From NCBI GenBank assembly GCA_040954595.2, contig CM082576.2, positions 7,505,129 to 7,569,128 on the forward strand: DNA of 64,000 nt, read 5' to 3'. The DNA is from Balanoglossus misakiensis (lineage: Eukaryota; Animalia; Hemichordata). Position 1 is the first letter of the stretch, and every line of letters begins with the position of its first letter. Shown here piece by piece: positions 3,984 to 40,950 of this stretch. A program made the position numbers and the translations under genes. The notes beneath the pieces are model-generated. The model was not told the DNA's origin, did not search any database, and was given only the letters and a program-made list of their open reading frames with translations.

Positions 3984-4991
3984 TCAGCAACTCTCATTGC
4001 CTGCAGCTTCCTGCGTGCCAGCTTTGCCTTTGGGCATGAGGACCGGGTGGATGTGAGGTACAACACCACCACGCGATATGGTGACGGTGGACAACAGCTG
4101 GTCGAGTTCCATGTCGTTCCTCACTCCGAGCGCGATGTGACGGGGCGAGATGGTTTTCACCTTGAGTTCCCTGGCGGCGTTGCCGGCGATTTCCACAATT
4201 TCGGCCGTGAGATATTCCAACACGGCAGCCATGTACACTGCCGCCCCAATCCCTGTACGACGAGCATATCTGCCTGCAGTAGAATGCAAAATGGAGGGAA
4301 ATCAACTGAAAGTGAATAGTATAACATTTTCTTTGAAGCCGACTTCTGTAACGGCACTCGACAGGCATTGGGTGATATACGAAAGCCATGAGACGATTCA
4401 AATGATATTTTTCATTTTATCACCGAAAATATTCAACTAATGTCTTTGCTGTTTTTTGCCATGCATTTACTTTGTTCTTCATTTCGCTTCATGTTGGTTA
4501 AAAAGTCGAGAAACAGGGGGTGCGAGTAAGACTTCGAGAAATAAACTTTAAGCGTTCAAATACATTCTCAAAGTCCGCTCGCACGCACGGGTTGTTAGCT
4601 CGAAGAGCACATTGTGTATGCTTTGAGAAAACCTTACACGCCCAGAATTTCTCTGAAGCCGTGCATTGCATTTTCGACCACGTTTTGTTCATATGCCAAG
4701 TGGTTAGCTGTACCAATACACATCTTTTTGAAATATGCTGATAAATATATCGCTTTCTGTTGAGTAGGTACCGTGAAACGAGAACAAAAATCAGTTGAAA
4801 ATTGAAAGTGGAATAAAAAAGAAATCTGTAGCCACCGAGGCCAGTAACGCCGGAGAATTGTACAATGCTTTCAAGCGATTCTTACCCTTCCGAAGATATC
4901 TGTGTAACCTCGTCACTGGAAATAACACATTTGCACGAGCACTTTTCGTCTTTCGGTTTTTGACTTTGCGTTTGGTGCCCGTTTCTGCCAT
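3984..4991 (-). CDS. H2A: Divergent histone H2A variant, 131 aa, one intron
   Basis: Exon 1 is 4991-4886 ([35 protein letters not shown], donor GTAAG). Exon 2 is 4273-3984 ([96 protein letters not shown]). The H2A histone fold is clear. AATAAA lies at 3979-3974 on the - strand. Confidence 0.93.
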
Positions 4992-8625: not shown

Positions 8626-9996
8626 ATGAACATTACATCTGTCTTTGAAATGGTGAGTTTTTCATGATAATTTTTTGGCATACTTTTGCCGTCTTTTCAT
8701 ATACATCTATTCCATTTATAAGTGTCAATAATTGTACATGTATTTGCGGTAAAAGAATGTCATTTTTTCTTGTTCGAAACGTGTCGTACCGGGCACTCGG
8801 AGGGGAAAGTGAAATTCGTCAACAGATGGCGCACTCCCTTACAAAACAATAACAGAAACGACCATGCGACTCCGGCAATAGATTACAATGCCAAAGTCCC
8901 GAACTATAAAAAAGAACTTAGTAAAATCTTTCATTTTAATAAGACCCACGGGAGGTACTGGTAACACATTTCATGATGTAATGATGGTGTGTGTTTTTTC
9001 TTTCTTTCAGGGTATACTAGTAATACTCTCATACATGGTCTCCATGACAGCATCTTCTCCAATATCACATCCTGAATCAAACTCGGCAGTGGATGTGGAC
9101 GAGAGTGACATTTGGCGACTGCACCTGGGTGACAGCGATCTCATCATTGGCCCCACTGCAGACGACGCCCTTAACAACCCGATGACGTCACTCCGTCAGT
9201 CAGCTGCCGTCCAGAACACCTCCCCGGAATCAGGTCGGCGGTCCAATCTGATGTCGGTACTCGATATTTACGACGAGGACGACGGAGAAGATGACGGCGA
9301 TGAAGGAATTTTTGACGAAGTGGAAATCGCGAAACGAAACACTGACACTCAGTCTCAAGCCGGGGCAACTTCACAGTGCAATTCAACTTTCAACGCGAAT
9401 ATCTCTTCATTCGGGACGACACCGGTGACCGGAGATGCGGACACGAGGATGCCGAGCACAACCATCGGCGGGCCTTGTATGGCCTTTCCCGAAGACTCGT
9501 ACGAATGCCCCGGTATTCTGCCGGTATACGGGGACGGCTACAATCTGCTGTCCACCTGCCCGTGGAAATACATCAACAATTACGACCCGAAACGGGAACC
9601 TATGCTGATCAAGAACGTCACCTGCCTGTGCGAAACGTGTCGATCGATTGACGTCACCCCGGAGGGCGAATTCTTGGCCCAAGAGATGATGATGTCTACG
9701 TGTGCAGCTATTCACTTTGACGTGGCTGTCTTAAGATGGGACGATTACACGAGAAGGTAAGAAAGCACTTGGAAAAATAGTAGATTTATTCATACGTGCC
9801 GTTTTGAAACTACATTTTTTCGGATACAAAGCATTTCGTTGATATTACATTATCGCTTTTAAAGCAAATGTACAATTATCACCCACTAAAATAACTTTTT
9901 CTCTCTCTCTCTCTCTTTGTTAGTGGGCCAGCAACACCGGGAACTGAACGAGTAAACGTCGGATGTACCTGTCTACGCACAAATTATAGAAGATGA
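8626..9996 (+). CDS. IL17: Interleukin-17 family cytokine precursor (~281 aa, 3 exons)
   Basis: Exons are 8626-8652 (MNITSVFEM), 9011-9756 and 9924-9996. The N-terminus is a hydrophobic signal peptide. The C-terminal cystine knot carries IL-17 hallmarks: STCPWKYINNYDPKREP, CLCETC, C...VAVLRW and ERVNVGCTC. Confidence 0.9.
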
Positions 9997-20700: not shown

Positions 20701-22036
20701 AAATGCCACCTGTAATGGGTTGAAAATATTATGAGCTATCTTATAATAATTTTAAAATTGCGAAATTTTATGAATCTGTCAAATTACTAAATACGCCAGT
20801 GCAAAAGGGACAATTCACAAAAAATGAAAAAATGTACTAACTTTCCAATCATGTACGTTGTATAACCCTGCTCTCTCAGCTGATGCGGCAGAAGTGTGAA
20901 CTTGAGGGGAAGTCCCGCCGGTTCCTTTGCTGTCAAGACTTTATACTGGAAGTGGAAGAAATCGCATTGAAATATTTCCAGGAAACACACAAGAATCAAG
21001 TTGAATGTAGAATTTATATTAGAAAATGGTTTTATACAGGCAAAGGAGAAATGACACGATAACAAAGACACTCACTTGCAAACCGACTCGGTGCGGGTAG
21101 TATCCGCTCATAAACGCCGTCCTGGTTCTGAAATCAGCATGAAACGGGCATAAATGTTTTACATCCTGCATCACGTTGTCAATATTACATTATTTATGCT
21201 TTAAAATTTTGAAATATCTACAAAGACTCACGGCGTGCACATTGGAAGAACGTAGGATTGGCTGAGAATGACGCCCTCTTTGGCCAGTCCATCCAGAGTG
21301 GGAGTGATGATGTCATCGTTGTTGTAACCGATGTCATTCCAACCTGAAAAAAAGAATTACCTCAACGTCAATTAGGGTTTGGAACTGTGCGCAAATGCAG
21401 CAGTTCCTGACTGCAGAATGATTCCACCAGCTAATGTTTGGGACTGCTGTTTTGATATTGTATAATGTCAACAGCTGACTCCAACTAAAAATAAAATCAT
21501 AAAGTCTATATTGCGCAATTTACATTTCGGATTTTCTTTTTCAAGGCTTCGCTTGTTTTACAGTACCAGAAATATACTAGAGAACATTGCGTTAGTTGAA
21601 AATACACAAGATTTTATCAACGCCCTGAATTGCAGGTGTTACGCGATGCGTCATTAGTGTTTCACCTTTTAAAGAATATTTTTGATTATCTTCATGCAGC
21701 TAGTCTCTGAAGCAGCCTTCTATGCGCCTGACAAACATAAAGAAGCTGCCAACGTAAGTAACAGACTTTGCAAATTAAAATGTTTTTACCTAATTTGATA
21801 ACCAAAGATGACATGTTGCCAGAATGGTGTTCGACACGGTTTATGGCAAATGCTGCAAACATTTCACTCCGCTAACCAAGGTCAATCTGTCTACCTCATA
21901 GGGTCCAGGGGCTACAGGTATACTTACCCAAATCGTCGGCAACGACGAACACGATGTTTGGTTTCTCGACTTGACGTTCGGTGACATGCTGGCCGAATGT
22001 GAACTGAACAACCGCTAAAAAGACACACAGCTTCAT
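17766..22036 (-). CDS. ARSB: Arylsulfatase B-like sulfatase (15 coding exons)
   Basis: Exons (- strand): 22036-21928, 21343-21232, 21127-21076, 20945-20842, 20709-20603, 20386-20322, 20060-19959, 19843-19780, 19486-19389, 19174-19032, 18840-18782, 18687-18573, 18346-18303, 18210-18085, 17941-17766. Motifs: signal peptide, PNIVFVVADDLGWND, catalytic CTPTR (CxPxR formylglycine site), GKWHLGFC, TDNGG, NWPLRGSKTTLWEGG and C-terminal GVWTSGWC*. Exact orthology among ARSB/ARSI/ARSJ is not established. Confidence 0.93.
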
Positions 22037-22298
22037 TGTGTCACTGCTCGCAATAACCAGCAGACGAAACTTTATAACTAACTGGCCTGACGACAGAAAG
22101 TGTCTAATTAACGCGAGGTGTGTCGCAGTTACGGCCGTGAATAAACCCTCAATGACTCATTACACTGTGATTTCAATAGAAATTTTATTTTAAAAATTTT
22201 ACCAGCTGTTACTGCGCGCGTGATTTGATGCCCAGGGTAAACAAAAGCGTGTTGTGTGGTTTGATATAATAGCAATTGTTTATATTAAATCTTGCTCG

Positions 22299-23140
22299 AT
22301 GTTTGTTGCGGTATACCCCGATGACTGCGAACACAGAAAAGAAGGTAAATACTGATCAACTATGTGTGGCAAAGAATGAACTTGAAATTTCACTGAGCAC
22401 AGTAACCATCCTGATAGGCTTCCCCCAATCAGAAGTACCAGTATATTTTCATGAAAATATCCTGTATCTTAAATTAAAAAGTGAGCATTTTGCATAACTT
22501 CAGAAAAAAGGTTATATTTACAGGGAATTGACGATATGTATGACGATATTGCAAACAGCTATATAAAAGTTATATTATTAAAGTGGATTTTGTTAGGTAA
22601 GGATTACAATATACCGTATTTATACCATTTTTTTATGATTTCCTTTGATTTTGGTTTCTATCAACAGTGCTGCCAGATGCTGTTGTTGTTCGTAAGTATT
22701 ATTTTCACAATCACCAAGATCAACCCAAATCGAGATTTTCGTTGCTCTTTTCTGAATTTACATATTCAATTTGTATTTGACACTCAAAACATTCCAAAAC
22801 CATCTCATGTGTTTTTCTACCCTGTCACGTCCATAACAACACAGGCAAAGAAGTAGCTCAGGCAGTCGATATCGTCCGAGATAAGTTGAACCCAGAAAGA
22901 TGGAAATCCCTTGCTCCGCACCTTGGCATTCCGGACCACGCGGCGCGAGCGATCGATCTGGAGATCCCTGACCTGGACGGGAAACTCTGGCAGATGCTCG
23001 AACGATGGAAAGACAGGTTTCAGGTGGGAAAGGACGTCATCAAAGTACAACTGAGTAAGCTGGTCAAGGCACTGCAGGTGATCGGAGAGTCAGAACTTGC
23101 CGGCGAAGTCTCAAGGGTCAGTGTCGACAACACCGAGTGA
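22299..23140 (+). CDS. Small death-domain-only protein (~113 aa, 2 exons)
   Basis: Exon 22845-23140 encodes KEVAQAVDIVRDKLNPERWKSLAPHLGIPDHAARAIDLEIPDLDGKLWQMLERWKDRF...LSKLVKALQVIGESELAGEV, a death-domain pattern (WK.LA..LG, ML..W, L..AL..IG..ELA). A phase-compatible first exon is 22299-22344 (MFVAVYPDDCEHRKE, donor GTAAAT); this exon is less certain. Confidence 0.75.
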
Positions 23141-23494
23141 CTTTAACTCTCACGGGGGTGCGGAACACACCAGATCACTGATTTTGAAGTCATTTTACCA
23201 ATAGAGGGCGCCGTCTTTCTCGATTGGCCGAAGTTGACGAAGCAAACTAACTGGAATAACTGGAGCTTATGGTCTTTTCACTTACAGTGATACTAAAAAA
23301 CAAATAATTGTCATGAAGAAACAATGTATTCCGAGAAAATAACACACAAAAGAAAACAAAACATGATTTTTCTTTCTAATCTATGATACACTTATTTTAT
23401 TCGTCTCGATGAAAGAGTATGATTACGACAAATATGCACCTATAGTCTATAGGTAAAATTCCATTTCCCTGAGAGAGTGCCACCGCGGGGCAAG

Positions 23495-23581
<87 letters not shown>

Positions 23582-23604
23582 GGATAGATGGATAGATAGA
23601 TAGA
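23495..23604. repeat. (GACA)n(GATA)n microsatellite
   Basis: Directly visible tandem gaca/gata arrays. Confidence 0.97.
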
Positions 23605-26169
23605 TGGTGTTCTTGAGTACGAGTAGGTGAAAGGTTATTTTTATACAATGGCTTAAGGGGTCAAATTGAATCCAAGAGAACGAACTGGTTGAGCAACAGC
23701 TGAGCAACAAGTCGTTGTCACTGATGCGTGTGATGGGAAGACGGTGCTAAAAGATCTCGAAGTAGCACATTTTGATAGCATTTTGAAGTTTCGACGACGA
23801 ATGTACTTGAATGTTGTAATTAATTCAGGTAAGTTTAAGTGAACACTTTTGTAGGGGTGAATTCATCTTTCTGAAACATGTGAAAGCTGTAGACTTTCAA
23901 TATGCAGTGGCGACCTTGGCAAAGGTCAAACACTCAACTTTCACTGAAAAAACAACATATTGTTCTGAAATACCTAGACCAAAAAAATAGAACACCATGT
24001 TATGTGTATTTCGTGCAAGTTTCCTCTCGGTAACGTCTTTCGATGTCGGTGTTTATTGCAACCTATAACGTTTATGGGCCTTGGTCATGTTGGTGCAGGC
24101 AAAGTTCAACTTCCAGTTTGTGAAAGGGTTGAAAAACACACAAATAATTGAATTTTCTAAAGTCGAAATTGAACTGACGTACCACGTGCCAGTGGACTTT
24201 AGGTATCCTACATAACCTCCGGTTTACGTTCGTGGATGTAATATTACGCAATTCTGTTTACTTTACATCTAAATGCAAGGACTCTGCAAATGATCTGATA
24301 CGGATATAAGTTGTCATACGACAACACGTCAATAGATTTCTGTATCATTTTTTCGTTCGCAACGTATGGTCGAAGTCGAACAACCTGGCCTACCCTTCAG
24401 CTAGATATAAGAATAAAGAACCAGCAAACCGCGTTAAGATACTCAAAGTTGGCCAAAGCTTTCATCCGATTGTATATACCTGTCTCTAATCCCAATCCCT
24501 CACATGTCAAAACATTTCATGATTTTATCGAATTATCAAATGTGGAGCAAGTATTTATACTGAAGTGACCTGTTAGCAACTTTTGACAGATTTACGTATT
24601 TTCTTACATATTAAGCTAGCATTCGGGTTTATTATGGTAGTGTTCTGTGTTAATCGGTTTAACATTTATTTTTGAAAGGTAATGTTAAGTCACAGCTGTT
24701 GTCCTGGTGTATATCTGTATGACCATCAGTATTTTTTAAGCTTTTGTGAATTTATGATGTTTTTATGACAAATATAAAGCTGAGTATGCAACATGGATGC
24801 AAATATATTTTGTAGCACCTGCACGAAAGCTCTGATAAGAAAGGCAGTAAATTCAATGGCTGGCAAACACTTTTAGGGATGTTGGTCAACATTTTTCCTA
24901 ATAACAAATTTGCAGCCAAGAAGTGTGAAAGCACAACAATTACACACTGGATATTGGGACTTGGGAAGACTCGCTTTCTGTCTTTCAAAAGATGCAGACT
25001 TTTTGGACATGATGTGATTAAAAAATAACAGTTGGTTGATATGACTAAACACTGTTTGCAATGGCGATTTTATTACTGTGCTTATCAGTGCTTTGGCTGT
25101 GGTGCTATAAAAAGAGTGTATAAATGTGGCCTGGTATGTGGTAAGGTCAGCAGCATTTTCATGAATTATTACATTCGTAAGTGTGCAGAACACTAAATTT
25201 CTACAATGCTGTGAGCAATAATCATGATTAAACATTTAGAAATTATGGAAATTGCAAGTTTCTGGCATTGTATCAAAATAGCCATATACGATATGCAGTT
25301 GCTTAGCAACAATATGCTATGGGCTCAAGTGACCCTGAAGGCCGATAAAGCTGATTATTTACTGGTATATTGTTAATCGACAAATTGATTCATTTTATAA
25401 AATTCGACTTAAGTCATGTTTGCAGCCTTGATTTGGTTTGATTTCCAGGAATTTCTGTTATATTCTCTGATTTAATGTGACTTCTGGCCAACATTGGTAA
25501 ATGCTGCATACATCAAACCAAGCAGTGTGAACAAGTTTGGCAAAAAGATTATTATCAAAATTGCACATATCTGCAATACAATTTTTGTTTGTATAATAAA
25601 ATTTATGATAAAACTGAACTTGTTTATCCTGCTGTTTATATTGTTATACTTTTTTAGGACGGGTAGAGTTTCAAATCTGATTAAAGTTTGATAAATGGAG
25701 TAGCGTGTTTGGGTCTGTTTGCGTTTTGTTATGAACTACGAACGGCCTGAAGTATTTCTTCCATCTTTTATGTTCCTGCCGGCACACTACGTCACTTAAT
25801 TTGCAGCAAGTTAAGATTAAGTTGCAGTGAAGGCAAAGGAGCAAATCTAATTGCAACAAACTTTAATCAGACTGGCAAGTTTCAATTCAATTCAGTTATG
25901 TGAAATATTGGGTCGGCTTTACATGATGATTTATGTACTGATTATCAACTCATTTTTACACGAACAGCCAATTATCTGAACTGCTTGGGCGACCTTTTCT
26001 TGTTTGGATAGACTGATTGCCCAGATGATTGATCACAACTCAAATACACATGTAAAGTTGCATTGCAGTTGATTTTGGCCGAATTTTACACACAGAGACA
26101 ATTTTTTGGTCTTATACTGGCACTTATTACTGGTGTAGTAATTTTTATCTTGTTTTATTCAGGATCAAC

Positions 26170-29100
26170 ATGGGATTCTCCAATTTCTCAAAAGTTCCAA
26201 GGACAATAACTTTGTTGATGGTAGCATTTGCATTGCTTGCACCTCGTACTTGCCATACTGCTGTGCTCCTCAATGAACTCAACGCAGACAATCCTGGAAC
26301 AGATGCTGAAGAATATATCGAACTCTACAACACAGCAGACCAGGCAGTTTCATTAGAAAATTACATTGTGGTTCTCTACAATGGAAATGGTGAAACTGCC
26401 TATGAAGTCATCACTTTTAGCAGCAGTTCCAGTATATCTGCCAAGGGTTTCTACGTGATTGGATCGACCAATGTTGTTCCTCCACCAGATGTTCTTCTTG
26501 GCGACACAAACATCATACAGAATGGAATCGATGCAGTTGCTCTGTACTTTGGAGACACTTCTAAGTTCACCATTGGTATGAGTGTTACCAATGACAGTTT
26601 GGTGGATGCTATTGTTTATGACAATGGTGGTGACCATGACGACAGCAAACTCATCGATGTTCTTACCCCAGGACAGAGGACTTTGCATGAGGATTCCGGT
26701 GGGGATGACGTAGATGAATCTTTGAGTCGATGTGTTGGTACAGATCCATTGACTTTGTCTCAGTTCTTGTTAACTCCACACACACCAGGCTCTTCAAATG
26801 ACTGCGCTCCCACGACGATCATCTTGAACGAGTTGAATTCTGACAACCCAGGTACGGACCAGGCAGAGTTCATTGAACTCTATAACACAGCTGATTCAGT
26901 GATGAGTCTTGACAACTATGTGCTGGTGTTCTACAATGGAAATGATGACAATAAAGCTTACTTGGTAATAGCCCTGAATGGAAGTATCCCAGGCAACGGT
27001 TACTATGTGATTGGATCAGCATTGGTCGATCCAATGCCAGACCAAATTCTACCGGGTGATGAACACATCTTGCAGAATGGAGTTGATGCTGTGGCTTTAT
27101 ACTATGGGAGTCCGTCACTTTATACAGTTGGCATGATTGTGACAACAGACAATCTGGTAGATGCGATAGTTTATGACAAAAGTGGAGGTCATTCAGACAC
27201 CTTGACTAATATTCTTACCCCAGGTGAACTGACATTACATGAAGATGATGACATGTTTGATTTTCCTGATGAGTCTCTCGGCCGATGTACCGGGAATGAT
27301 CCCAGAATTCTTTCTCAGTACTGGGTGGGTCCAATAACACCTGGCTCTGACAACAACTGCAGTTTTCCCAATCCAACTGCGTTGCCAACTACTCCAAGAC
27401 CAGTCACCTCAGCAGCTGTGCTCCTCAATGAACTCAACGCAGACAATCCTGGAACAGATGGCGAAGAATATATCGAACTCTACAACACAGCAGATCAGGC
27501 AGTTTCATTAGAAAATTACGTCGTGGTTCTCTACAATGGAAATGGTGAAACTGCCTATGAAGTCATCACTTTTGGCAGCAGCTCCAGTATAGCTGCCAAA
27601 GGATTCTACGTGATTGGATCATCCAATGTTGTTCCTCCACCAGATGTTCTTCTTGGTGACACAAACATCATACAGAATGGAATCGATGCAGTAGCTCTGT
27701 ACTTTGGAGACACTTCTAAGTACACCATTGGTATGAGTGTTACCAATGACAGTTTGGTGGATGCTATTGTTTATGACAACGGTGGTGACCATGACGACAG
27801 CAAACTCATCGATGTTCTCACTCCGGGACAGAGGACTTTGCATGAGGATTCCGGTGGGGATGACGTAGATGAATCTTTGAGTCGATGTGTTGGTACAGAT
27901 CCATTGACTTTGTCTCAGTTCTTGTTAACTCCACACACACCAGGCTCTTCAAATGACTGCGCTCCCACGACAGTAATCTTGAACGAGTTGAATTCTGACA
28001 ACCCAGGTACGGACCAGGCAGAGTTCATTGAACTCTATAACACAGCTGATTCAGTGATGAGTCTTGACAACTATGTGCTGGTGTTCTACAATGGAAATGA
28101 TGACAATAAAGCTTACTTGGTAATAGCCCTGAATGGAAGTATCCCAGGCAACGGTTACTATGTGATTGGATCAGCATTAGTCGATCCAATGCCAGACCAA
28201 ATTCTACCGGGTGATGAACACATCTTGCAGAACGGAGTTGATGCTGTAGCTTTATACTATGGAAGTTCCTCACTTTATACAGTTGGCATGACGGTGACAA
28301 CAGATAATCTGGTTGATGCGATAGTGTATGATAAAAGTGGTGGTCATTCAGACACCTTGACAAATATTCTTACCCCAGGTGAACTGACATTACATGAAGA
28401 TGATGACATGTTCGATTTTCCAGATGAGTCTCTTGGCCGATGTACCGGAAATGATCCCAGAATTCTGTCTCAGTACTGGGTGGGTCCAATAACACCTGGC
28501 TCTGACAACAACTGCAGTTTTCCCAATCCAACTGCGGTACCAACAACTCCAAGACCAGTCACGTCAACTGTGCTCCTCAATGAACTCAATGCAGACAATC
28601 CTGGAACAGATGGCGAAGAATATATCGAACTCTACAACACAGCAGATCAGGCAGTTTCATTAGAAAATTATGTCGTGGTTCTCTACAATGGAAATGGTGA
28701 AACTGCCTATGAAGTCATCACTTTTGGCAGCAGCTCCAGTATATCTGCCAAAGGATTCTACGTGATTGGTTCGTCCAATGTTGTTCCTGCACCAGATGTT
28801 CTTCTTGGCGACACAAACATCATACAGAATGGAATCGATGCAGTTGCTCTGTACTTTGGAGACACTTCTAAGTACACCATTGGTATGAGTGTTACCAATG
28901 ACAGTTTGGTGGATGCTATTGTTTATGACAACGGTGGTGACCATGACGATAGCAAACTCATCGATGTTCTCACCCCAGGACAGAGGACTTTGCATGAGGA
29001 TTCTGGTGGGGATGACGTCGATGAATCTTTGAGTCGATGTGTTGGTACAGATCCATTGACTTTGTCTCAGTTCTTGTTAACTCCACACACACCAGGCTCT

Positions 29101-32100
29101 TCAAATGACTGTGCTCCCACGACAGTCATCTTGAACGAGTTGAATTCTGACAACCCAGGTACGGACCAGGCAGAGTTCATTGAACTCTATAACACAGCTG
29201 ATTCAGTGATGAGTCTTGACAACTATGTGCTGGTGTTCTACAACGGAAATGATGACAATAAAGCTTACTTGGTGATAGCCCTGAATGGAAGTATCCCAGG
29301 CAACGGTTACTACGTGATTGGGTCAGCATTAGTCGATCCAATGCCAGACCAAATTCTACCAGGTGATGAGCACATCTTGCAGAATGGAGTTGATGCTGTG
29401 GCTTTATACTATGGAAGTCCGTCACTCTTTACAGTCGGTATGACAGTGACAACAGATAATTTGGTTGACGCGATAGTGTATGACAACAATGGTGAACATT
29501 CGGACACCTTGACAAACATTCTTACCCCAGGAGAGCAGACGTTGCATGAAAATGACTTCTTTTATGACTTTCCTGATGAGTCACTCGGCCGATGTACTGG
29601 AAATGATCCAAGAATTCTTTCTCAGTATTGGTTGGGGCCAATAACACCTGGCTCTGAGAACAACTGCAGTTTCCCGAACCCAACACAGTTGATCCCAACT
29701 GTTTCTCAAATGAGTACTCTTCCTGAAACAAGTACCGAACAAACAACAGCACCAGGTCCAGTTTCTTCACCCGTCATCATCAACGAGCTTAATGCCGATA
29801 ATCCCGGAACTGACGACCAAGAGTTCGTCGAGTTATTCAACACGGGTGACAACCCTATCCAGCTGGACAACTACATCTTGGTTTTCTATACAGGCAGCAG
29901 TGACACAGCCTATGCCGTTGTCCAGTTGCCAAACGGTCAGTCTATTCCTGCAGGTGGTCACTTCGTCGTTGGATCGAGTAACGTGAATCCCACACCGGAT
30001 CTGATCCTGAGCGGCAGCATATCAGTTCAGAACGGAGAAGACGCAGTGGCGTTGTACTACGGCAATCCTTCGCGCTATTCTGTCGGCATGTACGTCACCA
30101 ACAGTGGGCTGGTTGACGCCATCGTCTACGATAACAGCGGTCAGCACGATGACACGCTGACGGATGTGCTAACACCTGGTGAAGAAACCCTCCACGAGGA
30201 CTCTAACCACCTGGCGAATGATGAGAGTCTGAGTCGCTGCGGCGGTACCGACCCTTTAAAGTTGTCCCAGTATGCCCTCACTGCGCCAACGCCGGGCACG
30301 GCCAATTTGTGTAACAGCACCCTTCCGTCCACTCCAACTGTGGTCGTGCCGACTCTTGATCCAGCACTGCAGCCGGACGTTGTCATTAACGAGTTTGACG
30401 TGGATGCTGCCAACCAGTTTATTGAGCTGTACGACGGTGGAGTTGGTGGGACTGCGTTAGATGGTTTGGTCCTGGTGCTGTACGATGGACTTTCCAGCAC
30501 TGTCTACTGGCATTACGACCTGAACGGCTACAAGACCGGTCCAGGCGGCTACTTCGGGGTCGGCACCAGCCAGCCCAACTGGACTCCAGACATCGCACTC
30601 ATGCCGGACATCATTAAGAGGGACGGTATCAATGCAATAGCTTTGTATTACACACCAGCATCTAATGTGTCACCGGGCACAGCGGTGACCAACCAAGACC
30701 TAGCCGATGCTCTGGTATACTCGTCAACAGAAGGTGATTTCAGTAACCACCCGCTCACCTCAACCCTCACACCAGGTCAGGATGTTCTCACGGAAGACGA
30801 AAGCATCTCTCAAGAGGAGGGCTCGTTCAGCCGTTGCCGGGGATGGCGTCTGCTGCTCATTTCATCCTTCATGCAAACCACTGCCACCCCCAGCTCGAGC
30901 AACAACTGCACCCTGCCGGCCGTCGTGTTGAACGAAGTCAACGTTGCTCAGTCTGGCCAGACCGTCCATAATTACGAGTTCATCGAACTTTACGATGGTG
31001 GAATAGGCCGTCAGAGCTTAGACGGTGTTTTGGTCGTCTTTTACAACGGAAACGGTGATGTGTCGTATCTTACAATAGACTGCACTGGATATAGCACTGA
31101 TGCTGATGGGTACCTCATAATAGCGGCTGATGTAGACAGCACCCTCGACCCGGACATCACAGTTCCGTATAACCCACAAGGATTTATCCAGAACGGTCCA
31201 GACGCAGTTGCTCTACACCTGGCCCCTCCGCAGCAGTTCCCTACAAGCACACCAGTCACTGACATCAACCTGATCGACGCAGTCGTCTACGGCACCAACG
31301 ACAACCCCGATCTGCAGCTGCTGGATGCACTGTTGCCCGGGCAACATCAAGTCAACGAAAACTCCAACTTCAAGCCGGAAGACCACAGCATCAGCCGGTG
31401 CGAATGCTGCCAGTCCCTCAATTCCTCCGCCTTCGGCTTGGGTCCGGTGACGCCTCGTGGTCTCAGCGTCAACTGCACCCGGAACAATGAGACGGTGACG
31501 GAGACCGTGCCCGTCTTGCAAGACCTGCTGCGGATCTACGAGGTGAATGCCGACCAGGAAGGTGATGACTTGCATGAATTTATAGAGCTTGGCAGTCCGT
31601 ACAAGTTTGTGTCATTAGATGGCATTGTGGTGGTTCTGTACAGTGGTGGAGATGACAGGTGAGATCAGAATTCAGCTACGTATATGGGAAAATGATCGGA
31701 AAGTGAATATTTGGGCAAACCCTATGATTTGCTCTTTTATGTTAGAAAAAATTCCAATCTCTTAAGGATTATAACTTTACAATGAGTTGGTGGAGTAATA
31801 TGGCAAACAGTAGCGTTTTGAAATAACTTTTGTTTTTCACACCTTCAGATATTTTCAACATATATGGAATGTCACAACTCACTAAATAAGTCTAAGCATT
31901 AATTGATAATGAAAATGATTGACTAATTTTGATACTCTTTGTGTTACAGATCATACAGGACTTTTGATTTGACTGGATACCAGACCAATGACAAGGGTTT
32001 ATTTGTAATAGGGTCTACAGCCATTACCCCAACACCAGATATAGTGGTCAGTCAGCAAGCTTGGATTCAAAATGGACCTGATGCTGTCGCCTTGTACAAG

Positions 32101-35100
32101 GTAATCTAACCAAGGCTTTTACATTGACATTTGTTACATAATTACTTCATGTTACTCCACAAATGGATGTGAAAGATAGTACCTTCTATTGTCAGAACAA
32201 TTAAGCTTTTGGACTATTGACAAGACCAAAATATTATTTCACAAAACTCTTGCCAATAGATACGTTTTATTAAAAAAAAATTTAATACCAAAAGCCCAAA
32301 ACTCCAAAGAAAACCTATACTTGACTCTTCTGGTATGTTGAGCTGCTTGACATAATTCAAAATGGATAACATGCTGAGTGTAATAATTGTCTTTATGTTT
32401 CTTATGTATGTGTATATTAGGGTGTGGCCACAGACTTCCCAATGGGCACGTATGTGACAGATGAAAACTTACTTGATGCAGTAGTGTATGGGACAAATGA
32501 TAAAATGGATCAAGAATTATTAGATGTGTTATCTCCTGGACAGGATCAAATCAATGAAGATTGGGATCATCATACAGGTACAGAGTACTTACGTATTCAG
32601 TGTCATTTTTGAACAGTATAGAAACTTGGCTCTTTCAGCAAAAATAAGAGAAATCCAACTGTTTCATGTACAAGTTATGGTAAATGAAGAATTTTAATTG
32701 GATTTTCCCAAATAATTGAAGACATTTTTGAAAACTCTTGTATGCTGTTATGTTGTTGTAATCATTAGCAATTGATGGTTTTGATTGATTGAACAGGTGA
32801 TGAATCCATCATTCGGTGCTATTCCAACAATGCCATAGATCTGATGGCTTTTACGCTGGGACACCCATCACCTGGTGCGCTGAACACTTGTCCATTGCCA
32901 CCACTTGTTGTCAATGAAATCAATGTAGATCAGGCTGGAGCTGATAAGGCTGAATATATTGAGCTACGCAGTCTTGACAGAGCTGGGTTTCCTCTCAACA
33001 ACCTTGTTGTGGTGAGTCTAATGGGTGTGGTTGTCAATCATAAAATGAAGTGGATGGATGCAGCCATATCTTTGTTGATAACAGTCATTCCTCAGAATGA
33101 AATATGATATCAGAATTTTAATAACAGTAGTTACTGTATTTTCTTACGGACTTGTAAGTTATGTCTGTTCACTGACCTACATGTACTGTACAAACACCAT
33201 GATACCAATTACCTGATTGGAAAATCATAACACTGTCAATTTGGTCTGGCAACTTGAACCTGCAAAGTTCATCTGACAGTTAATATTGACATTATGATTT
33301 TGTTTTTTTTTGTCGCTACTCATTATTATAGGTCCTTTACAATGGCAAAACTGACCTGTCCTATCGGTCAGTTGGTATTGATGGTCATCGCACGGACAAC
33401 AACGGACTCTTCCTAATCGGCTCCGACCAGGTGTCTGTAGTCCCCGATCTGATTATCAATGCGCCGGCCGATGGTTTCATCCAGAACGGCCCTGATGCAG
33501 TGGCTCTCTACTCGGGCACCGAAGCCGATTTCCCAGACGACACGTTCGCTACAAACGACAGTTTGATCGACGCTATCGTCTACGCCACTGACGGAGATCC
33601 GCCGGCCCAGTCGCTGGTCGATATATTGACTCCCGGTGGAGAGCAAGTGATCGAGGATGATCGGTTTCACTACGGCGACGAGTCCATCAATCGCTGCGAC
33701 GGGGACGCCGGTGACGTCAGAATCGTTGTGTCTCATTTGTCTCCCAAGATGAAGAACATCTGTCCGCTGAGTGGCAATGTCAGTCTCATCGTCAATGAAG
33801 CTGGAGTGGTGCAAAACAACAACTTTATTGAAATCTGGGACGATGGATATGGTGAAGCCCTACTTGGTAAGTCTGCAAGGGGCAACAAATGGATTGAAAT
33901 GTGGGAACACTTTTCTGACCAAAGAAAGTATTTGTGTGGTGTGTGAGCATTTACTGCATTTACCATAAATGAGTTTTTTTGTACATATTTTTTTTTACAG
34001 ATGGCTATGTCATTGTGGTTTACAATGACAATGATGAGTCCGTCATTACCTTCGATTTGACTGGGTACACAACGAACCAGCAAGGCTACTTTGTGGTGGG
34101 GTCAGACAGTGTCCAGCCAGGAATGGTGGTGGATCAAGGTAAGATGTCATGAAACCATGAAGAGTCTGTTTATTCAGGTATCACAATAAGAGTGCTCATA
34201 ATGAACCGATTGGTTTATGTGAAGAACCTCAAGGTCTGTTCTCATAGCTTAAAGCACGAGTGCACCTGGTGTGCACCTGTTTGAAGTGTTTGACGAAGCA
34301 ATTCATCTGTCAAAGACAACCCTGTGAAATTGCTTCTTGGGTGTACATTTATGTAAATAATAAAGATGTAATTATAATTAAATGCGGTTTTATAAGTATG
34401 CAAATAAAATTGTACTGTCCATCTGTTTGTATATCAAATTTGTCCAGACGACCATACTAGCCAATCACTACTGAATGTGCAATCTTCCTTTGGACTCTCA
34501 GATTTCCTACCAATGCTGAATGGTGGCATTGGCGTGTACAGAGCCCCAGCCTCACAGTTCCCCAATGGTACATCGGCTACTGCAGAGAATATCGTAGATG
34601 CACTTGTGTACAGTCAACAGGGTAACTCTGCTGATAGTCTGGCAGAAGTGTTACTCGGTACCCAAGCTGCTGAACAGGTGAGTCTATTATCTAAAAAAAA
34701 ACTGTGAGAAATGCATTAAGCTAAACTGAAATATTAAAAACATATATATGAGAAATTAAACAGTGATCAGGGCAACAGAGCAAAGTTTGGGAGATATTGT
34801 GAGCATACCTTGTAAAGTAAAATTTAAGTGCAGGTGCTATCTGATTGTTCCAAAATAAGGACCAGCTTGATCTGAAAATGAAACACTGAAAACTTAAGTG
34901 CAATTGTCTGTCACCACTCCCACCAACAGGTGAATTCTGATGCTGTACAGACTGGCAGCAACACCATCAGTAGATGTCTGTCAGGCAACACACGAGACTC
35001 AGCAGCTCATACTGCAGGTGTCAGCAGCCCAGCATCTCTCAACAAGTGTCCTGTGTACAACACTGACATCATCATCAGCGAACTCAATGCAGACCAGCCA

Positions 35101-38100
35101 GGAGATGACGACAGAGAGTTCATCGAACTCTATGACGGTGGCCGGGGCAACAGTTTGCTGTCCTATCTCACTCTGGTGATGTACAACGGTGGTGGGTTGG
35201 ATAGCTCGTACATGGCTGTGAATCTGGATGGGTACTCGACCAACTCTGATGGATATCTTGTCATTGGATCCAGTAATGTGCAGCCAGGTAAGAGAATCCA
35301 CTCGGAATTTGAGTGATGATTTGCGCACCAGTTTGAGTTAAGAGTAAGTGTATCACAAGAAAATCATCCCAATTTATAAAACAAACTTTCTAAATGAAAT
35401 AACTTCACCAGCCCACTGGGATTTCAATCTATTTCAGCTGCAGATATTGTACTCAGTTCAGAGAATGGTGGCTTTCTGCAGAATGGACCAGACGCCATCG
35501 CCATATACCGCGCTCCGACCACAGCATTTCCGTACGGCACACCAGTTACTGATGTCAGTCTCCTAGATGCTTTGGTTTACAGCACCAATGACCAGGTGGA
35601 TCAAGTTCTTCTCGACACACTCACACCAGGTCTGTGACAAGGGATGTTCATAATCATTCATCATCTCCATTTGCTAAGTTAAATTTAAGGCTTGGATGCA
35701 TTTTTCATATTGTATTCTGAAAGGCCACTTAAGAAAACTTGTTTAATTCAAGTAGTGGAAGAATTATATTTAGTGGAGGGCGTGTGTGCAGATATAAGAT
35801 GTATGTTTGTTGTGTCTGCCTTTCTTCACAGGGGGAAATCAAGTCAAAGAAACTGCAGATGCCACTGGTAATGATCAGAGTATCAGTCGTTGTTATGGCA
35901 ACACGAGGTTCGACACATCAAGCTATATACTGGCTGCTCCAACGCCAAAGGCCAACAACAGCTGTCCAAGCCCTCCTCCTCCAGCTGAAGGTGAATAACT
36001 TGCATCATTGTAGGCCCTATGCTTGTATTGAGAGATTGTATCTATTAATACTCTGTGTACATTGGAATTGGCCAATTAGGGTGCAAAGTTCATTTCATTT
36101 CTGAATTTGCCTACAAGCATCTATCTTATGTTTCCATAGTGTATCATCAGTACTGTTGAAAGGGTGAATCATCTTGAACAATCATCAGGCATTAGGGTGG
36201 GGTTCCATTTGTACAAGGATTAAACTACTCATCAAAGCAAACATCCTTAAGAATGTGTGAATACAAGAAAGAAGAGATAATGATATCACTTAATGTTTAA
36301 TATTTTGAGACGTACATCTCTGTATTGATCAAGAGATATGATTTGTTATCTGTTCTTGGCCAGACATTATCATCAACGAGTTGAACGCTGACAGCCCAGC
36401 TACAGACACGCATGAATTCATAGAACTCTACGACAAGGGCGTTGGCAATACTCCATTGGATGGACTCATTCTTGTATTCTTCAACGGTGCTGATGATGAT
36501 AAGTCATACTTTGAACTGGACCTCAATGGTTACAAGTAAGTTACCTTTGATTTTGCTAGTGAGAAAAGAAATAACTTTATTTTCAATGACAGATGCACGA
36601 CAGTTATAATGTATGGCAGATCAGTAAATTAAAAGAAATCGTTTATTATTTTTTTTTTCAGGACCAACAGCAATGGATACTTTGTCATCGGAAGTGACAA
36701 TGTTGTACCACAACCGGACATCATAGTTGACTTCAGCTTTCTTCAGAATGGCCCGGATGCAGCCGTCTTGTACAATGCCAACCTTGCAGACTTTCCTCGC
36801 GGCACCATGGCAACCAGTGACAACATGGTGGATTGTATCGTCTATGGCACCAATGATGACCAGGACGAAACTCTCATAGCGATCCTTGCCCCTGGACAGA
36901 TCCAAGTGAACGAGAATGACGGTCATCTCAGTCAAGATGAGTCTCTGTCCAGATGTCTGTCAGATGATGTGGTCAATTTGTTTGCATACATCGTCTCAGA
37001 GCCCACTCCAGGTAAATTCATGTCCTTTCCACAGGGTTCGTATTCTCCTGGAAACTCTTGGACTTTTGAATTACTCTGGGTGTATGTACTTTGATCTTAT
37101 AGCACATTTGTATTCGTGAAGACAAAAACAAAAAAACAAGAGGAAAACAGCAGCAGTTATTTCTATCACTGGGGGCGTTGCATGTGGGTATTTTGACTTT
37201 GAGGATCCACTAGATCAGGATACGTATTTCCACTTTAGCTTCAGGATCACTTGAGAAAAAGTCACAAACAAGAAAACCTCGTCAAGTCGTCAGGATGTAG
37301 GATTAAAACTATTTAGTCAAAAGGAATGTACACATGTTAATCTTTCCTTTCACAGGATCAGCAAACAACTGCACCCTGTCGACTATTGTGATCAATGAAC
37401 TGAATGTTGATCAGCCTGGCGTAGATGAGAAGGAGTTCATAGAGTTGTACGATGGTGGCAGAGGCTACACCTCCCTGGATTCGCTGATTGTGGTCTTGTT
37501 CAATGGACAGGACAATGACAAGTCCTACAGCACCATTCCACTGCAGAATTACAGAACCGATGGGTGAGGTTTTTTTGGCACGTGTGCCACTCACTAAAAA
37601 TTTGCAGTTGGCTATACTAACCAGTACATGTATTTAAATTTGCATAGGTAACCGTTTACACATGTACCTTGAAATGTACAATATGTATTCTATATACAAT
37701 TCTAATACAGTGGCCCTTGTGCTGTGGTCAACTTGCAGTGATGGTTACTTCGTCATTGGCGCTGAAGGAGTTACTGACTACGTTGACATCATAATCGATG
37801 CTGACAATGGGTTCCTGCAGAATGGGGCGGATGCCATCGCTGTCTATCGCGACGACCCCAGGAACTTTCCGGATGGCACCCTACCAACCCAGGAAAACTT
37901 GGTGGATGCCCTGGTCTATGGAACATCAGACAACAGGGACGACTCTCTGGTGGATGCTCTGTTGCCCGGGCAACACCAAGTTGACGAGAGTGCGGATTTC
38001 ATGGACGGAGACGAGAGCATAAGCCGCTGTATCTGTTGTGAGGCGTTACAGGCATCTGCGTTCGGACTGGGTCACCCTTCCCCCAGGGGTGCCAACAACT

Positions 38101-40950
38101 GCACTGCTGATGATGTCTACACCCCACCCCCGCCAGTGACGGTTAAAACCACTCCCCCGCCCAGCTTACCCCCGGTGGTCATCAACGAAGTCAACCCGGA
38201 CAACCCAAGCTACGACACCAGGGAGTTCATCGAACTCTACGGACCAGCGGGAACGGATCTCAGCAACCTGGTAGTGGTCTTGTACAACGGCAACTTGGAC
38301 CCTCCGACCTCTTACTACGCAGTTGGACTCGAAGGGCAGCAGCTAGATACTTTCGGCTTCCTGGTGATCGGCTCCGTCAACATGAGCCCCCCTCCGGACG
38401 TCTCGCTGCCGGATCAGGACTCCGGAATTATCCAGAACGGAGCTGATGCAGTTGCTCTGTACATGGCCACAGTGAAGGACTTCCCCAATGGTACTCCAGT
38501 CACCGACAAGAATCTGATAGATGCACTGGTTTATACAAACGACAGAACCAAAACGAGTCAGGCACTCTTGGATGTGTTGACACCAAACTATGACATATTT
38601 GTTGAAGATGACAGGTATGTGGATGTTCATTATTTCATTTTGTGTCTCATATTGCCCCTGATGGTTTAGTGATCATTTTACATTTTAATTTATTCTTTAG
38701 GGCAAATGGGAATAACTTGGCATAAAATTTACAGCTAGGACTTATCCATTTCATATTAATGATCATGATTGATATGCAGCCAATAATAGCGGTAGATGAA
38801 ACCCATAATTCAAACAAAAAGGGATAGGACAACACCTTACCCCGTTGTACATAAAATAGCCATAGAAATGTGCATATTCCTAACTTTGTGCTGCTACATG
38901 CATCATGTTTCTTCTCCATAGTGTACGATGTCCTCAGGACACTTACGGTTGTCAACAGGTGACATTCTATTCCAGAGTAGGTCTATTAGTATTAACTCAC
39001 TTTAAAACTGAGTCAATTATCTCACTGACTTTTAGTCTAGTACCTGGCCCTACATACGCCTTGGCATTAGACTAACTGACTCTCAACAGTAATATAATTA
39101 TTCATGACCTTTAAAAATACTGTAAGGATGACACAATATACTGTACATGTGCACTTAAGTCAATTTAGAGTCTTCTATGAAGTGGAAATGTCTGTAAATT
39201 TAGTGATAATTCCAGGGCTGGGTGTGTACTCATCACGCCCCTTGTTTTCACCCCACAGCTGGCACGGCACACAGGACGAATCCATCAGCAGATGCAGTTG
39301 CTGTGACAACAGGACCCCGGGGGTGTACGCCCTCTCCTTCCCCAGTCCCGGAACGCAGAACAACTGCCCGAGCGAGGATTACGCTCGGGACATCCAGATG
39401 AGACTCGTAGACGCTGACTGCGAGACGTGGCTGGCTGATGACAGGTACATGAATGCGTTGATCGATGAGATCGTTGCTGGCGTAGAGGAAGGATGCCAGT
39501 GTGGGTTTACTCCGGTCTACTTGCAAGGTGAGCTCATATCAATATGCGTCTTGTTTTGGTTGACATGTGTGATGATAGATGATAATTTCTGCTAACATTA
39601 TGAAGATTATACCCCAAAAACAGGTATCAATATAATTGTCTCCTTTGTAATTCACATGTATTGTTCAACCAACAGTATTTTTTCTAGAAGAATAGGTAAT
39701 TTACATAACAATTATCTTTTAATATTGCCATTGGGATTATTGATGATTGCTTTATATCAGACCAATAGTAATCTTGCAGGTGAAAGTCCCATATGACTGG
39801 GACGGGTAAATTGAATTTGGTATCAAATTTGGTAAGCCCTTATCAATTATCCTTGCATTGTTCCCATCCTCACTGTTCCTTCTTTCCTGGGAAGGTAGGA
39901 ATATGGAAAGGGAAAGTGACAGGGACTTGTCTGATTTTTCGGTTGTTGTGCAATCAGTGAAGTGTGTGTGAGGAATGAGAAGGACTGACAATTCTGTGTT
40001 GCTTCTGTTTTTAAGACTCCAAGGTGTTCTGTGGCAGTGTGGTGTACCAAGCCACCATGCTTGCCATGAACGAGGAACAGCGGGCGTACCTAGTCAACAA
40101 CTACACACGGTACATCACTGAGACAGAGGAAGTTGAGATACTGGGTGAAAGGTACGCAGTGGACAACCAGTGTGTTTGGGACTGTGTGCCTGATCCTGAG
40201 GCTGTATCTCAAGGTAAATAAAATCAATGTTGGTTATTGCACTTGTGGAAATACATTCAGTCATGAGTATTAAAGTCAGGAAAAATATCGAGATATTGTA
40301 CCGCAGTGAGAACAATTTTGCTCAGACAGGCACAAACTGGTTTCATATTTTTTTTTCCTGTCTCAGGTTTGTCTGGTGGGGCCATCGCAGGTATTGTGAT
40401 AGGTGTACTGGTGGCTGTGGTCCTGGTGCTAGCCATTGCGGTCTTTGTCATCAAGAGAAGGAAAGATGGGTCAGTTTGAGTTCATTTGAATAGGACACTT
40501 CTGTGAGACCTGAGTGACCTTCGTTCCGTCCTGGTGTTTTGTTGGTATGACATCAGACATTGAACAGCTTATTTCTCTCAAGAGTGATGGATACCCCATG
40601 AGAAAGCAATGCTTTGTGTGCATTTCTAAGCTCTGCTACCTGATGGATTTGCTGTTGAGTTGCATGTAGTTGTATGATCCTCGGGGGGTTTGAGTGAATC
40701 TAATATAAAGTCCACAGACCGTCGAGGATAATAAAACATCCTGGTAATTGCGGAGGGCCGTGACCTTGACTATTCATTCTTTTGTGCGCCATTAAGGAAG
40801 AATATTATCTTTATTTTCAGCTATGACAGGTATGCGTTTGACGACGGCTTCAAGATATCCAATGCCTGTGAGCTGGACAGCATAGCAGGAGGTGGAAACA
40901 TGCAAAGCTTTGACAATCCAGCCTATGAGTTTGGCAACTCCAAGTACTAG
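26170..40950 (+). CDS. ~3,291-aa type I transmembrane protein with 16 tandem lamin-tail-like (LTD) domains, a Cys-containing juxtamembrane domain, one TM helix and an FDNPAY-containing tail
   Basis: 18 phase-consistent coding exons totalling 9,876 nt: 26170-31658, 31950-32100, 32421-32577, 32797-33011, 33332-33866, 34001-34138, 34502-34677, 34930-35287, 35438-35629, 35832-35990, 36364-36535, 36662-37011, 37356-37563, 37739-38614, 39259-39527, 40016-40213, 40367-40469, 40821-40950. The protein has a signal peptide and 16 repeats of the pattern [VI]INE.N.D.PG.D..EFIELY...QNG.DAVALY...DA.VY...SRC...TPG..N.C. The TM is AIAGIVIGVLVAVVLVLAIAVFVI followed by KRRK. The tail ends QSFDNPAYEFGNSKY*. A probable 5'UTR exon ends at 23828 (GTAAGT), and the acceptor is at 26162. 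Confidence 0.9.
26263..29683 (+). repeat. Intragenic tandem triplication of a ~1.15-kb two-domain unit
   Basis: The unit starts (GTGCTCCTCAATGAACTC) at 26263, 27418 and 28570, giving periods of 1155 and 1152 bp. The DNA and protein are near-identical across the three copies. Confidence 0.95.

Follow-up and report, generated by a model that had tools for sequence, protein, structure and literature searches.

We analyzed a stretch of 64,000 nucleotides from the acorn worm Balanoglossus misakiensis (GCA_040954595.2, contig CM082576.2, positions 7,505,129 to 7,569,128 of the forward strand), hereafter the window, and found in it a gene of the si:ch211-183d21.1 family that encodes a long array of extended LTD repeats followed by a predicted membrane anchor (Table 1). 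The 18-exon model was assembled from numeric splice candidates in the window, its introns are all GT-AG (17 of 17), and it is colinear with an uncharacterised RefSeq protein of Ptychodera flava (XP_070578841; 81.7% identity over 2496 columns), which checks the splicing independently. The gene is real, and it reaches past the interval 26260..39370 given by an earlier, sequence-only reading of this DNA, its end lying at 40950. From a hydrophobic stretch at its N terminus, the protein runs through 16 repeats and a Cys-rich domain to a single membrane helix and a tail of about 48 amino acids, and the 16 repeats together with the C-terminal domain account for the gene model. The chain is strongly acidic (D+E, 14%), and the linkers between the repeats are rich in Thr and Pro.

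Table 1. Parts of the repeat gene, in positions of the window (aa, amino acids)
Feature	Position	Strand	Remarks
Whole coding gene (si:ch211-183d21.1 family)	26170..40950	+	18 exons, 3291 aa, predicted type I membrane protein
Start codon and predicted signal peptide	26170..26253	+	Hydrophobic N-terminal stretch, hydropathy only
Giant first coding exon (repeats 1-9 and start of repeat 10)	26170..31658	+	Open frame; 9 Pfam LTD stretches
Repeats 1-6	26254..29667	+	Triplicated two-repeat unit, 93-98% aa identity among copies
Repeats 7-9 (R9 with RCxCC), intronless	29764..31476	+	R7 model, pLDDT 84
Repeats 10-16	31519..39367	+	Contain 14 GT-AG introns, no two at the same position
Intron 1	31659..31949	+	Position likely shared with echinoderm-like relatives, inferred from open-frame ends
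Cys-rich SEA-like (ferredoxin-fold) juxtamembrane domain, exons 15-16	39368..40213	+	GSVV motif at 40033-40044
Phase-1 intron before membrane exon	40214..40366	+	Likely shared with sponge Corticium (inferred)
Transmembrane exon	40367..40469	+	Hydropathy 3.5
Cytoplasmic tail exon and stop codon	40821..40950	+	FDNPAY (FxNPxY) at 40909-40926

The repeats, each of 175-188 amino acids (about 183), span 26254 to 39367. The first exon scores 287.6 bits against the Pfam LTD model PF00932 (curated cut-off, 34.3) in nine stretches, and the 183-residue unit exceeds the 109 positions of that model. A unit of two repeats was recently triplicated to give repeats 1-6: the copies differ at 18-50 of 552 bases, and Ptychodera holds a single copy of the unit. 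Within the same exon (26254-31476), GC content at third codon positions is 0.39-0.47 in repeats 1-6 and 0.63 in repeats 7-9.

The sequence-only reading had proposed that the repeat was acquired from bacteria and then adapted with disulfides, N-glycosylation sequons and introns. The features themselves are largely present as described. Each of the 16 repeats has a pair of Cys, one after a conserved Arg and one at the repeat end, that probably form a disulfide; RCxCC is found in three (R9, R15 and R16), and sequons occur in 14 of 16 (none in R7 or R10). The adaptive meaning given to them did not survive. The sequons number 27, not above the 34.7 expected from the composition of the protein, and thus appear ordinary, with no sign of adaptation. 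The Cys pair is already present in 58 of 105 domain copies from GTDB and in 83 of 160 named bacterial copies, as well as in 425 of 454 animal-clade copies; being common in bacteria, it was inherited or is at least shared, and is no animal novelty. Among the Cys features, only the extra CxCC, which accompanies the pair in none of the 160 named bacterial copies, is animal-type. Tandem expansion after the transfer is likewise contradicted by bacterial proteins that already carry three to six copies, some of them immediately adjacent to one another. The presence of disulfides, sequons or scattered introns is therefore no sign of domestication by itself.

The juxtamembrane domain was examined in a model of the sea-cucumber orthologue (residues 279-392), which matches the SEA domain of MUC16 with a Z of 8.2 and a root-mean-square deviation (rmsd) of 3.2 over 104 aligned residues, on a scale on which unrelated ferredoxin folds reach a Z of 7.2. 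Foldseek gave no match for the domain at E<=0.001, Pfam scans gave no SEA match, and the Atlas gave no feature match, its structural neighbours lying under the naming bar. Of 517 proteins collected, 73 have the C-terminal domain, and every one of these comes from a named animal or falls in the animal clade. Since these include Corticium and Lingula, the layout of repeats, SEA-like domain and membrane helix predates the split between sponges and bilaterians.

The description of the repeat as a prokaryote-like domain was borne out. Bacterial copies match the animal repeat over its full length at 37-49% identity, whereas lamin tails match only a part, at 16-19%. A scan of 185,579 GTDB genomes with one pattern returned 247 matches, of which 195 were related stretches, and the 79 loci retained cover 14 named bacterial phyla; a search of cluster representatives counted 6976 proteins at E<=1e-3, and the three Atlas clusters listed are bacterial or have no recorded source. 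The bacterial carriers are secreted proteins: cargo of the type IX secretion system (T9SS), ExeM/NucH nucleases and sortase-linked proteins. These secreted LTD (PF00932) proteins, Chloroflexota surface proteins among them, share with the animal repeats the invariant residues and often the Cys pair and the tandem copies. The animal protein differs in having no nuclease, T9SS or sortase part, and relative to the bacterial ones the CxCC, the SEA-like domain, the membrane helix and the tail are additions. ExeM matches the repeat at residues 15-102 only (23 bits), and no EEP nuclease domain was found, a Pfam scan of the Ptychodera orthologue yielding LTD and a weak PARM match only. According to excerpts of PMC6085458, LTDs occur in secreted bacterial proteins, also in tandem, with a role that is unknown, and the LTD of ExeM is dispensable in vivo.

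Two structural relatives help to place the repeat. The AlphaFold model of R7 (predicted local distance difference test, pLDDT, 84) has its core fold, and the repeat its Pfam label, in common with the lamin Ig-like tail (Foldseek E 1.6e-4; VIA Z 9.6, 104 residues, 18%), at 16-19% identity and over residues 1-126 only. Lamin is nuclear, whereas the repeat protein is predicted to be extracellular and has neither rod nor CaaX; Pfam scans of exon 1 and of the Ptychodera orthologue found no intermediate-filament family, and signal and membrane helices are present. The best full-length fold match is instead the DUF4876 lipoprotein BT_1938 of Bacteroides (PDB 4q1z; Z 13.8, 175 residues, rmsd 3.0), matched again in a second structure comparison (Z 10.4), at only 12% identity. 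BT_1938 is a putative lid of a TonB-dependent transporter, a role that is itself predicted (excerpts of bioRxiv 10.1101/2023.03.17.533168). DUF4876 transporter-lid lipoproteins thus have the extended lamin-tail fold, a link not found in the literature consulted, part of it in excerpt. A PDB sequence search with one repeat gave no match, and 53 pattern matches in viral contigs included no relative.

Homologues were drawn from the best 120 of 172, 120 of 439, 120 of 556 and 150 of 6976 matches, and 30 clusters were looked up. Named orthologues come from calcareous and homoscleromorph sponges (Sycon, Oscarella pearsei, O. lobularis and Corticium); from Lingula, Ptychodera, Saccoglossus, a crinoid, a sea star, a brittle star, a sea urchin, a sea cucumber and Branchiostoma; and from vertebrates, namely ray-finned fishes (si:ch211-183d21.1), coelacanth, lungfish, amphibians, reptiles, a bird and echidna. 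Among the matches listed there was no ctenophore, demosponge, placozoan, cnidarian, mollusc, annelid, ecdysozoan, tunicate or therian, and no protist was named or flagged by EukProt, one of the sources, in 360 listed rows or the 30 clusters. The proteins filed in RefSeq and UniProt, uncharacterised, as si:ch211-183d21.1, MGC145260 or "LTD domain-containing protein" are built of the same parts (repeat, SEA-like domain, membrane helix and a tail with a tyrosine motif), and the window's gene belongs with them by its tandem extended LTD repeats within the animal clade and by its Cys-rich juxtamembrane domain, helix and short tail. Repeat number varies, from 16 here to 12 in Ptychodera and 4 in tetrapods, and tetrapod members have two SEA-like domains; the tail here carries FxNPxY in place of YxxI/M. 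The O. pearsei homologue (P0012) carries an N-terminal Frizzled cysteine-rich domain (residues 33-128, PF01392), which may point to Wnt or lipid binding. On the function or origin of the family, literature searches turned up no study.

The scattered intron positions noted earlier are real, with 14 introns at 14 different profile positions in R10-R16, and R1-R9 in one 5.5-kilobase exon. To read introns in relatives, we took records that break off on diverging from a RefSeq protein as open frames entering introns. On this reading, one record (P0271) tracks Corticium residues 1-1437 in a single open frame at 98.9% and leaves it just before the membrane helix, where the gene in the window has its phase-1 intron; another (P0316) runs in a single frame over Sycon residues 28-975, and pieces from O. 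lobularis break off once in every unit of three repeats, near profile positions 103-106. In four of six relatives tested, the alignments stop at window codon 1830, where intron 1 lies. The sponge relatives thus appear intron-poor, and the proposal of an intron-poor ancestral array that gained lineage-specific introns later fits these records. Old internal repeats of any origin can have scattered introns, so their presence does not prove transfer.

One origin of the repeat within animals is well supported. By FastTree, all 140 named animal rows fall in one clade (support 0.994) that holds no named bacteria, and in a larger FastTree the animal clade (0.912) contains 227 named animal rows and none of the 141 named bacterial rows. 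A quick IQ-TREE tree of 40 animal and 59 bacterial rows gives the animal split a support of 99, and a 69-row IQ-TREE tree, which omits 20 of the 40 animal and 19 of the 59 bacterial rows (long branches and near-duplicates) and in which the bootstrap had not settled, gives the animal clade 100/97. In the latter, animals and the bacterial extended copies join at 97/99 against an outgroup of nine divergent bacterial LTDs. Metagenomes add little and yielded no animal contig: a scan with a sponge-like protein gave no match, and in a second (78 loci, 188 near-full domains) FastTree placed two domains, along with a weak one from P0105, inside the animal clade. We rejected these as real relatives and read them as long-branch artefacts, because they are weak or degenerate and sibling copies in the same proteins match bacteria. 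In 25 unnamed proteins that were compared, every domain has its closest counterpart in a named animal or among the repeats of the window itself, although for a few degenerate copies bacteria come almost as close.

The same gene being present from sponges to echidna, any borrowing likely happened once and very early in animal evolution. An acquisition specific to one lineage therefore does not hold. We consider an ancient, single gain of the repeat from bacteria to be the probable history, since the domain is of bacterial type, the animals form one clade and no protist was among the matches listed. The nesting of animals among bacteria that the reading had looked for in a maximum-likelihood tree is seen in the best tree and in all 200 of the bootstrap trees counted (the bootstrap not having settled); it is not significant, however, and the trees identify no donor.

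Several observations weigh against this history or against the function that we propose below. Bacterial monophyly with animals as sister is not rejected (a cost of 2.65 log units; approximately unbiased test, AU, p 0.46), and on the quick tree its AU p is 0.97. The outgroup of the 69-row tree was picked by low score, the sister row of the animals is a long-branched member of the Verrucomicrobiales (P0396) that holds this place in 168 of 300 bootstrap trees, and the sister differed between FastTree runs. For all 16 repeats a non-deuterostome animal (sponge or Lingula) outscores the best GTDB bacterium, so that the alien index suggested earlier would flag the gene only with all animals left out. 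The absence from protists rests on the top-ranked matches listed, and 24 unnamed proteins fall in the animal clade. Many independent losses are required. On the functional side, NPxY is missing from 8 of 20 invertebrate tails, rows that are not independent.

Vertical inheritance, in which an extended LTD was present in an earlier eukaryote (the opisthokont ancestor or older, with a prokaryotic or endosymbiotic source) and was lost or went unsampled in protists, draws on some of the same points and is the most credible alternative, if a rather unlikely one. Nesting within bacteria not being significant suits it, and since the gene predates the split between sponges and bilaterians, its patchiness demands many losses within animals anyway, whatever the origin. 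Excerpts of two papers lend it further support: Koreny and Field (PMC5630835) describe LTD-like domains outside lamins in "several eukaryotes", and Ku and Martin (PMC5067920) argue that differential loss is underestimated. Koreny and Field also note LTD-like domains in bacteria and consider that the lamin tail may have come from prokaryotes. Against it stand the lack of any named or EukProt-flagged protist in the rows and clusters listed, and the 37-49% identity to bacteria, which would be a high value for an extracellular domain passed down from early eukaryotes.

What the protein does is suggested by its tail and its repeats. NPxY is present in 12 of 20 invertebrate tails, from sponge (Corticium) and brachiopod (Lingula) to acorn worms, echinoderms and amphioxus, and all 12 vertebrate tails have YxxI/M. 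Both are usual internalisation signals. Near the repeat start and in a QNGxDA motif, acidic and amide residues hardly vary among bacterial copies and are frequent in animal ones, a pattern suggestive of a site that binds a metal or ligand. Based on the retained tyrosine motif and these conserved polar residues, the protein is likely an endocytic receptor. The main functional rival keeps the bacterial origin and makes of the protein an adhesive or mucin-like spacer, a part of the glycocalyx or mucus that is released by shedding at the SEA-like domain. The long array with its Thr/Pro-rich linkers would suit such a role, as would the GSVV motif, the closeness of the juxtamembrane domain to the SEA of MUC16, the acidic chain and the several paralogues without NPxY. 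A tyrosine sorting motif kept from sponge to vertebrates and invariant polar residues common to bacteria, which suggest ligand binding, are harder to reconcile with a spacer, and we regard this role as quite unlikely. Taken jointly, judging from sequence and models, we give bacterial transfer plus an endocytic role an even chance.

Concerning the direction of transfer, the extended domain might have arisen in early animals, passed to bacteria and spread there. An unrooted split gives no direction, the bacterial end branches are shorter than the animal ones in the quick and 69-row trees, and the domain is patchy in bacteria, with 195 stretches among the 185,579 genomes scanned with one pattern. 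The short branches may be explained by a bacterial sample that was picked by likeness to the animal query; the 14 phyla, the many architectures (T9SS cargo, ExeM/NucH nucleases, sortase-linked proteins) and the more divergent bacterial LTDs and DUF4876, which show a deeper bacterial history, make this reversal improbable. Hardly credible, in spite of an intronless 5.5-kilobase first exon and a Pfam LTD label, are a recent transfer into the acorn-worm lineage or repeated separate transfers (there is one animal clade from sponges to echidna, with a shared C-terminal domain), derivation from the animal's own lamin (identity of 16-19% over part of the fold) and contamination, which, as the sequence-only reading rightly held, is ruled out by the spliceosomal introns.

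Contamination is also excluded by the animal genes that flank the repeat gene, an Interleukin-17 family exon at 8882-9760 (+; PF06083, E 2.9e-7) and a Death-domain exon at 22781-23140 (+; PF00531, E 4.5e-8), about 3 kilobases upstream. Introns and animal neighbours are what one looks for at the host locus of a horizontally transferred gene, and both are found here. Elsewhere in the window lie a divergent exon at 3984-4301 (-) that we take, from its motif, to be histone H2A-like; an exon at 21896-22156 (-) with a signal-like stretch, no Pfam match and what is presumably a sulfatase-type N-terminal motif; a Lys/Arg-rich open frame of 262 amino acids at 2327-3115 (+), also without a Pfam match; and a short tetranucleotide simple repeat at 23447-23746.

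Returning to an ancient bacterial gain, we envisage that a domain already equipped with its Cys pair would have been acquired a single time from a secreted protein of bacteria, before the sponge and bilaterian lineages separated, and fused to a signal peptide, a SEA-like domain, a membrane helix and a sorting motif in an intron-poor ancestral gene. Repeat numbers (3-16) would then have changed from lineage to lineage, introns would have been added at scattered positions, and the gene would have been lost many times. In present-day animals the repeats, through their conserved acidic residues, may bind an extracellular ligand, Ca2+-dependent binding being a guess, and the tail would drive clathrin-type uptake. 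A still broader scenario is tentative and, on balance, doubtful: that the ancestor of all animals captured a bacterial ligand-binding module and turned it into a previously undescribed endocytic receptor, which has persisted from sponges to egg-laying mammals, has expanded in filter-feeding deuterostomes and imports microbial or dissolved cargo like that which the module binds for bacteria. If the transfer is true, a bacterial surface module became part of the founding cell-surface toolkit of animals.

An unstudied and widely kept family of animal surface proteins gains from this analysis a defined architecture, a likely job in uptake and an age that precedes the sponge-bilaterian split. Since the function of bacterial LTDs is obscure, identifying a ligand in zebrafish or frog would be informative for the animal and the bacterial side alike.

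Among known systems, the genes shared by deuterostomes and microbes that were described by Simakov et al. in 2015 (PMC4729200) follow the same pattern, with microbial relatives, a patchy presence in animals and introns in a normal locus. The repeat gene was not found in the parts of that article that were consulted, and it differs from those genes, as described in these parts, in being present also in sponges and Lingula, hence not specific to deuterostomes. In its ferredoxin-fold juxtamembrane domain the protein is like the SEA-domain membrane proteins MUC16, SorCS2 and Trop2. It is not a member of the LDL-receptor family, Pfam scans of exon 1 and of the Ptychodera orthologue having returned no LDL-A, EGF or YWTD modules, yet it shares with endocytic receptors of that family and of the megalin type a long ectodomain of repeats, a single membrane helix and an FxNPxY tail.

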